Origin: Escherichia phage vB_EcoM_ESCO9
Length of the DNA stretch: 64,000 nt
Sequence record: OM386654.1
Reading direction: 5' to 3' (one strand)
The notes under the pieces: model-generated
Database searches by the model: none
Told to the model about the DNA's origin: nothing
The model's input: only the letters and a program-made list of their open reading frames with translations
Made by a program: the position numbers and the translations under genes
Shown: positions 47,422-47,496 of the stretch, in pieces
Layout: the number at the start of each line of letters is the position of its first letter
How positions within the stretch are numbered: the stretch's first letter is position 1

Positions 47422-47496
47422 TGGTACATCGTGAAGGATTCGAACCTTCGACCTTGGAGTTAAAAGCCCTTGCTCTACCAACTAAGCTAACGATGT
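47422..47496 (-). tRNA. tRNA-like with ambiguous anticodon arm (UUA in standard register, UUU/Lys if shifted by one)
   Basis: Good acceptor, D-arm GCUU-AGUUGGUA-GAGC, T-arm GAAGG-UUCGAAU-CCUUC and CCA; anticodon region AAGGGCUUUUAACUCCAAGG forms only a 3-bp stem in either register. Confidence 0.45.

Follow-up and report, generated by a model that had tools for sequence, protein, structure and literature searches.

A phage-encoded tRNA-Lys(UUU) with a one-base contraction of its anticodon stem in a small lineage of phi92-like phages

Which codon is read by the tRNA encoded at positions 47422-47496 of the analysed window (the whole stretch of DNA, 64,000 nucleotides)? Its anticodon arm is abnormal and can be read as the loop UUUUAAC with the anticodon UUA, when the count runs strictly from the 5′ side, or, shifted by one, as CUUUUAA with the anticodon UUU. 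The original prediction therefore considered it either a decaying tRNA-Lys or an ochre-suppressor-like derivative that would read UAA. That a tRNA gene is present was readily confirmed. ARAGORN called a tRNA-Lys(ttt) with exactly these boundaries on the minus strand, a strand that the original prediction had not given. The Rfam model RF00005 scored the locus at 59.3 bits (gathering threshold 29, E = 2.7e-10), the fourth best of the 14 Rfam tRNA hits within the window. By parts, the RNA reads ACAUCGU-UA-GCUU-AGUUGGUA-GAGC-A-AGGG-CUUUUAA-CUCCA-AGGUC-GAAGG-UUCGAAU-CCUUC-ACGAUGU-A-CCA (Table 1). The acceptor stem of 7 bp, the discriminator A, the encoded 3′ CCA, the D arm with A14, G18G19 and A21, and the T arm with GUUCGAAUC are all canonical, as had been claimed, in the sequence, in the Infernal/Rfam alignment and in the cloverleaf. 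The loop C32-U33-UUU-A37-A38 together with the discriminator A73 is that of tRNA-Lys(UUU).

Table 1 Parts of the tRNA-Lys gene and their positions in the window
Feature	Position	Strand	Description	Evidence
tRNA-Lys(UUU) gene	47422..47496	-	75 nt including the encoded CCA; RNA ACAUCGUUAGCUUAGUUGGUAGAGCAAGGGCUUUUAACUCCAAGGUCGAAGGUUCGAAUCCUUCACGAUGUACCA	ARAGORN, Rfam, MN850573 annotation, synteny
D arm GCUU/AGUUGGUA/GAGC	47472..47487	-	E. coli-like U16 U17	Rfam, alignment
GGG run, 5′ strand of the anticodon stem	47467..47469	-	Site of the one-base contraction; GGGG in most relatives	Alignments, allele census
Anticodon loop CUUUUAA	47460..47466	-	Anticodon UUU at 47462-47464	Invariant columns C32-A38, ARAGORN drawing
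3′ strand of the anticodon stem, CUCCA	47455..47459	-	Positions 39-43 in ancestral numbering; C39 U40 C41 versus host U39 C40 A41	
Variable loop AGGUC	47450..47454	-	5 nt if the stem slips and the 7-nt loop is kept; 4 nt (GGUC) in the register of the original prediction	
T arm GAAGG/UUCGAAU/CCUUC	47433..47449	-	G-C pairs never vary	Rfam, alignment

The gene belongs to a tRNA gene cluster with 15 or more members (15 being the number of ARAGORN calls) that extends over 45460-48498, all on the minus strand. Its neighbours are tRNA-Ser(GCU) and tRNA-Tyr(GUA), and phi92 as well as at least 40 relatives carry a tRNA-Lys in the syntenic slot. Window positions 47000-48000 are 100% identical over 1 kb to Escherichia phage muut (MN850573 / NC_052657), one of the phi92-like phages (Stephanstirmvirinae, Justusliebigvirus). 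The identical allele is annotated in GenBank as tRNA-Lys in muut, VEcB and cardinal (in VEcB as tRNA-Lys-TTT), in agreement with ARAGORN and against the suppressor option. The gene is thus a phage-encoded tRNA-Lys(UUU) of a known family that is already annotated in public records, and what is seen here is an allele-level variant of it. The identical 1 kb corresponds to positions 9782-10782 of MN850573; since this offset puts position 1 of the window before the start of that record, the window must be circularly permuted relative to the record or joined across its ends.

The abnormality of the anticodon arm is real. The arm comprises 16 nt in place of the standard 17; from position 26 to the T stem there are just 21 intervening nucleotides, one short of the 22 in a standard tRNA whose variable loop has 5 nt. 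In the Infernal alignment, one base is missing from the 5′ strand of the anticodon stem and two non-pairs are flagged; no register offers the standard 5-bp stem with a 7-nt loop, the maximum being three pairs. We compared the predicted energies of the possible registers. When the stem slips, G-C, G.U and G-C pairs close the 7-nt loop CUUUUAA with the anticodon UUU, which is the register chosen by ARAGORN (-15.8 kcal/mol for the whole molecule). Alternatively, G-C, G-C and G.U pairs close the 8-nt loop CUUUUAAC; at -17.1 kcal/mol this is the most stable cloverleaf of those compared, although the two predicted energies are close. The register with the loop UUUUAAC retains only two pairs, G29-C41 and G30-C40, with A27.A43, G28.A42 and C31.U39 mismatched, and its predicted energy (-14.9 kcal/mol) is less favourable than that of an arm left open (-15.2 kcal/mol). 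The statement that the stem has three good pairs in either register consequently holds for UUU (G-C, G.U, G-C) and fails for UUA. Which of these registers the molecule would actually adopt we infer from these folding models. Three G-rich pairs are not necessarily fatal, because the isolated muut stem-loop has nearly the same predicted energy (-1.0 kcal/mol) as that of E. coli tRNA-Lys (-1.1 kcal/mol). The minimum free energy fold of the whole muut RNA is not a cloverleaf (-19.4 kcal/mol). Since unmodified E. coli tRNA-Lys is likewise predicted to fold into a non-cloverleaf structure, such folding is uninformative about function.

Could the tRNA nevertheless be an ochre suppressor? E. coli supG and supL are ochre suppressors that are charged with lysine and derived from tRNA-Lys, and tRNAs that read UNN codons are expected to offer the context A36-A37-A38 for MiaA-type modification. 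An analogous molecule would arise here if the D stem fixed the register of the arm, placing UUA at 34-36 of a Lys-charged tRNA that would read UAA; the count from the 5′ side does give U33-UUA-A37. In addition, the triplet presented would not be fixed by the sequence if the 8-nt loop formed. In the structure of SufJ, an extra base 5′ of the anticodon is absorbed with residues 34-37 in place (PMC4238358). Against this stands, first of all, the loop itself: CUUUUAA is identical in all relatives and invariant in both allele types described below, in E. coli, in T5, in the Ackermannviridae phage CRW-SP2 and in the Mydovirus phage NDO71, and every homologue with a full-length arm has UUU at 34-36. 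Since the loop is unchanged and invariant among relatives, the lesion lies in the stem, at a run of G, and not in the anticodon. The UUA register, with its two pairs less stable than an unpaired arm, would moreover present A36-A37-C38 in place of the A36-A37-A38 context. Finally, the phage does not avoid TAA: among 61 non-overlapping open reading frames of at least 80 codons in the window, 48 end with TAA, 7 with TGA and 6 with TAG. Thus, none of the three marks of an ochre suppressor that we looked for (UUA in a supported register, a changed anticodon and avoidance of TAA) was found here. The energies of the registers, the loop that has not changed and the use of TAA led us to reject the suppressor reading, which we regard as very improbable. 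The anticodon UUU, on the other hand, suits the phage, because AAA makes up 72% of the lysine codons in the window.

The origin of the lesion was traced by aligning the gene with 1 kb around it in 13 relatives and by counting the alleles of GenBank phages with 46-nt exact-variant queries. The common allele, AGGGG/CUUUUAA/CUCCA, was matched exactly in 26 GenBank records and in PHB05 (2 records). Its 17-nt arm has four pairs (G31-C39, G30.U40, G29-C41 and G28-C42) and a single mismatch, A27.A43; its cloverleaf is the predicted minimum free energy structure, and it scores 68.9 bits with Rfam. The orthologues therefore combine UUU at 34-36 with a better-paired stem, which again speaks against the suppressor option and essentially bears out the other one, a decaying tRNA-Lys that has lost one base. 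Three phages with identical copies of the tRNA-Lys, muut, cardinal and VEcB (MT932211), have the shorter GGG run; so does Salmonella phage UAB_1, where it is accompanied by C41A, which breaks a further stem pair, and by A59G. By their flanking sequence, muut, cardinal and VEcB cluster as a local clade; when the replaced tRNA-Thr of UAB_1 is left out of account, UAB_1 and VEcB are equally close to muut. Two substitutions also weaken the stem in other phages: G31U is private to phi92, and G30U occurs in PD06, PD211, phiWec187 and four records labelled as Campylobacter phages. We had taken U31 of phi92 as the majority or reference state and dropped this assumption when the census showed G31 to be common. 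Outside the GenBank phages, IMG/VR contributed two contigs (one with GGGG and one copy of PD06) and the metagenomes one (GGGG), and no further stem variants appeared in these collections. The genomes of bacterial species contained no match at all, so no bacterial source of this tRNA-Lys was found there.

The four Campylobacter-labelled records (MG065639, MG065645, MG065656 and MG065689, 'UNVERIFIED Campylobacter phage' A150, A145, C3 and A110a) contain genomes of phi92-like coliphages that share about 97% identity with the window over 47000-48000, and their host labels seem doubtful.

The alleles form a descending series of Rfam scores: 73.6 bits for the second allele type (allele B, below), 68.9 for GGGG, 66.0 for U30, 59.3 for the GGG deletion and 52.8 for UAB_1. 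ARAGORN did not detect the UAB_1 copy of the tRNA-Lys and found that of phi92 without assigning it an identity. The gene as such is conserved: only 5% of the tRNA-Lys columns vary across the genomes with the common allele type (allele A, which comprises GGGG and its stem variants), versus 33% of the intergenic columns. Among Lys homologues four of the five anticodon stem pairs change on both sides, and all tRNA helices covary. Taken together, the alignments and the census show GGG, at the level of alleles, to be a derived one-base contraction, GGGG to GGG, apparently inherited in the small lineage of muut, cardinal, VEcB and UAB_1.

A change in the length of a G run from 4 to 3 is also what an assembly or sequencing error at a short homopolymer would look like. 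The same contraction is, however, present in four phages, one each from Denmark, a Stanford wastewater facility, Russia and Spain; the muut sequence was obtained on the Illumina NextSeq platform (PMC7552041), and the carriers group by their flanks. For these reasons we consider the deletion a real inherited allele; the four isolates and the clade grouping led us to reject an artefact, which is hardly credible here.

Allele B is carried by alia, arall, PaulScherrer, EmilieFrey, KKE7M, Serratia phage KKP_3264 and others. Its acceptor and T arms are identical to those of allele A, which it does not match in the D arm, the anticodon arm and the variable loop. It has the perfect stem CUUGA/UCAAG, keeps UAAUCA and carries C16 as in T5. 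PaulScherrer (allele B) and Eryne (allele A) have different alleles between near-identical flanks, which points to recombination within the tRNA-Lys gene and suggests that its central part behaves as a swappable cassette.

Jointly, the identity as tRNA-Lys(UUU), the origin by a one-base deletion in the stem and the reading of UUU are, in our judgement, highly probable. We propose the following course. The contraction would have been inherited in the small lineage with the loop CUUUUAA untouched. The three remaining Gs may pair with C39, U40 and C41, which would keep the loop-proximal core and the 7-nt Lys loop but sacrifice the top stem pair and the spacer at position 26; alternatively, they may pair with U40, C41 and C42 and leave an 8-nt loop. 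With either pairing the molecule would present U33-UUU-A37 and the discriminator A73; because of these features the tRNA, if it works, should be charged with lysine and read AAA and AAG. The stem lesion most likely reduces its performance. A weakened copy would be tolerable, because the host has a median of six tRNA-Lys copies: a tRNA-Lys was found in 5426 of 5426 E. coli genomes, with a median of 6 matching places per genome.

How much function is left is a separate question. As far as it can be read from sequence, the gene is best described as lying somewhere between a weakened tRNA-Lys and an early pseudogene, and the chances that it is still useful or already non-functional appear roughly even. 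The 16-nt arm would shorten or distort the helix that connects elbow and anticodon and may cause complete loss of function. In that case, the deletion would have ended the work of the gene, which would now drift while the host tRNA-Lys, being plentiful, does all the decoding. Such a dead pseudogene is a real possibility, to which we nonetheless give somewhat less credence than to its absence. It would account for a stem with three pairs at most, and for the state of UAB_1, where the deletion is joined by C41A and A59G, ARAGORN is blind to the copy, and the neighbouring tRNA-Thr is broken as well (31 bits, T arm disrupted). The UAB_1 tRNA-Lys has 2 more changes in 75 nt, versus about 0.6% (2 of 348 columns) in the four other non-replaced tRNAs of the 1-kb stretch; these very few events are compatible with relaxed constraint after the deletion. 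On the other side, the three-pair core G29-C41, G30.U40 and G31-C39 with its canonical loop can still form, and the same core closes the same loop CUUUUAA in the NDO71 tRNA-Lys (stem CCGGG/CUCGG). The tRNA also seems to tolerate a weak stem, because the stem-breaking alleles U30 and U31 persist in several phages. A weak argument against a dead gene is that the copies of muut, cardinal and VEcB show no other damage, while 12 of 418 intergenic columns in their flanks are variable; zero further changes in the tRNA-Lys, against about 2.2 expected if it were neutral, is not a significant deficit.

The UAB_1 tRNA-Thr itself (positions 87-159 of the locus) has had its central part replaced, with 13 differences, and its T arm is unpaired; Rfam gives it 31 bits, ARAGORN makes no call, and it is unannotated in the record. 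UAB_1 seems to be losing several tRNAs.

A further possibility is that the stem changes were selected. AriB, the effector of PARIS, cuts E. coli tRNA-Lys(UUU) between C40 and A41 in U36AAUC|A41; U39A abolishes the cleavage, A41C inhibits it and U16C in the D loop impairs it (PMC12409363). The published targets are the tRNAs for Lys, Thr and Asn, and the T5 versions of all three neutralise PARIS (PMC11464382, PMC12409363). Allele A reads U36AACUC41, so that positions 39, 40 and 41 are all unlike those of the host (C39/U40/C41 versus U39/C40/A41), and it keeps the host-like U16. The muut tRNA-Lys thus carries substitutions at or near the cleavage site (39-41), which, like a change at D-loop position 16, is the kind of difference that we had looked for as a sign of nuclease evasion. 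The deletion and its sister alleles might accordingly have been favoured as poorer substrates for nucleases that attack the anticodon arm, or as a decoy, an explanation that we consider unlikely. The determinants of AriB at 39, 41 and 16 (PMC12409363) do coincide with sites altered in the phage: allele A is changed at 39-41 and shares C41 with T5, while allele B keeps UAAUCA but carries C16, like T5. The genes for all three AriB targets, Lys(UUU), Thr(UGU) and Asn(GUU), also lie close together, and the phage tRNA-Thr has G39. Furthermore, four of the seven mutational events within allele A (U30, U31, the G deletion and C41A) fall within the 10 stem positions and all of them break pairs (binomial P ~0.008, a post hoc statistic on few events). 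Since the GGGG allele already has the substitutions at 39-41, the deletion offers no evident gain against AriB. One G run takes three of the four stem events and is a possible site of slippage or a G-to-T hot spot. The clustering is equally compatible with nuclease pressure and with a damage-tolerant stem that contains a mutation-prone G run. More broadly, recurrent selection, in place of decay, on the 5′ strand of the stem (with the four independent pair-breaking changes G30U, G31U, loss of G and C41A), be it for nuclease escape or as a decoy, seems to us improbable, and so does the alternative that the possible 8-nt loop of muut gives low-level UAA read-through or +1 frameshifting; were such selection nevertheless at work, the muut deletion may be the most extreme of these alleles. 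None of the phages tested in the PARIS studies consulted was phi92-like.

[quoted passage not shown] Position 39 of the tRNA-Thr is G where the AriB motif requires U39. In the tRNA-Asn, the loop and the 3′ stem strand up to position 41 read U36AAUCC41, which is the motif given for the host tRNA-Asn (PMC12409363). The T5 tRNA-Tyr is reported to protect against the PtuAB toxin of retron Eco7 (Ec78) (PMC11464382).

Several other elements of the cluster depart from standard tRNAs. The tRNA-Asn(GUU) (47238-47322, minus strand) is 85 nt long, with about 12 nt extra in the variable region, which is unusual for Asn; this form with the extra segment is invariant in 12 of the 13 aligned allele-A genomes. 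The tRNA-Ser(UGA) called by ARAGORN at 47890-47979 (minus strand) is under the Rfam tRNA threshold, its best score being 35.1 bits as tRNA-Sec (gathering threshold 47), and its orthologue is flagged as a pseudogene in the phi92 record. The tRNA-Met(CAU) called by ARAGORN at 48423-48498 (minus strand) had no Rfam hit at E <= 1 and has the T loop AUUGUAA in place of UUCGAAU. Between tRNA-Ile and tRNA-Met, a weak element resembling tRNA-Trp(CCA) (45541-45618, minus strand) was seen by ARAGORN at a lowered threshold only and by Rfam with 22 bits as tRNA-Sec. Finally, an unannotated tRNA-like gene at 48046-48124 (minus strand), missed by ARAGORN and absent from the muut record, reaches 38.6 bits with Rfam. 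It has a good acceptor, a good T arm and the anticodon arm CCUGA/CUUCUAA/UCAGG (UCU, Arg); 4 nt stand in place of the D arm, and the anticodon and T arms are about 22 nt apart. Just upstream of it is the near-consensus promoter-like sequence TTGACA-17-TATAGT (48164-48136, minus strand). The 141-nt stretch with this element recurs in phi92, PD06 and two metagenomic contigs at 96-99% conservation.

The main value of these results is the correction of the earlier reading: the stop codons of the phage are to be read in the standard way, because it carries no ochre suppressor. They also reveal, among related phages, a natural allelic series of one tRNA-Lys: the stem is either full or weakened in one of three ways, and a second cassette brings another D arm. 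As the differences from the host tRNA fall on positions that matter for the PARIS nuclease, this series could serve as a test set in which features needed for translation are set against those for escape from defence.

The muut tRNA-Lys is most similar to the GGGG allele of inny, Eryne and BME3, with which it shares 75 of 76 positions, the genomic slot, the loop and the acceptor, D and T arms. It differs by the loss of one stem G, which leaves a 16-nt arm with three pairs, not four, and 59.3 versus 68.9 bits. In the papers searched we found no discussion of the stem of this tRNA-Lys or of the GGG allele; the BME3 paper simply lists Lys(TTT) among 16 tRNAs. Compared with E. coli tRNA-Lys(UUU) (lysT family), the identity is about 83%: the loop CUUUUAA, the D loop AGUUGGUA, the T loop and A73 are the same, and the D stem is one base apart (GCUU in the phage, GCUC in E. 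coli). The E. coli tRNA has a full 5-bp stem, GUUGA/UCAAU, with U39 C40 A41, whereas the phage tRNA has C39 U40 C41 and the A.A mismatch 27-43, and muut in addition lacks one base.

The PARIS-neutralising tRNA-Lys(UUU) of T5 is also phage-encoded and likewise has changes close to the AriB cleavage site, C41 being common to both, and a mismatch at 27-43 (PMC11464382, PMC12409363). It differs from that of muut in having A39, C16 and an arm of normal length, where muut has C39, U40 and U16, and resistance to AriB has been shown for the T5 tRNA only. The +1 frameshift suppressors of the SufJ type have an 8-nt loop (PMC4238358), as does one of the two best predicted registers of muut. In them, however, a base is inserted in the loop, whereas muut has lost a stem base and orphaned its partner. 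The E. coli suppressors supG and supL share with muut a Lys body, and in muut the count from the 5′ side can read UUA at 34-36. Their suppressor anticodon arose by substitution of U36 to A within an arm of normal length. There, it is a base of the anticodon that has changed, whereas the muut tRNA-Lys has a wild-type loop and is damaged in the stem.
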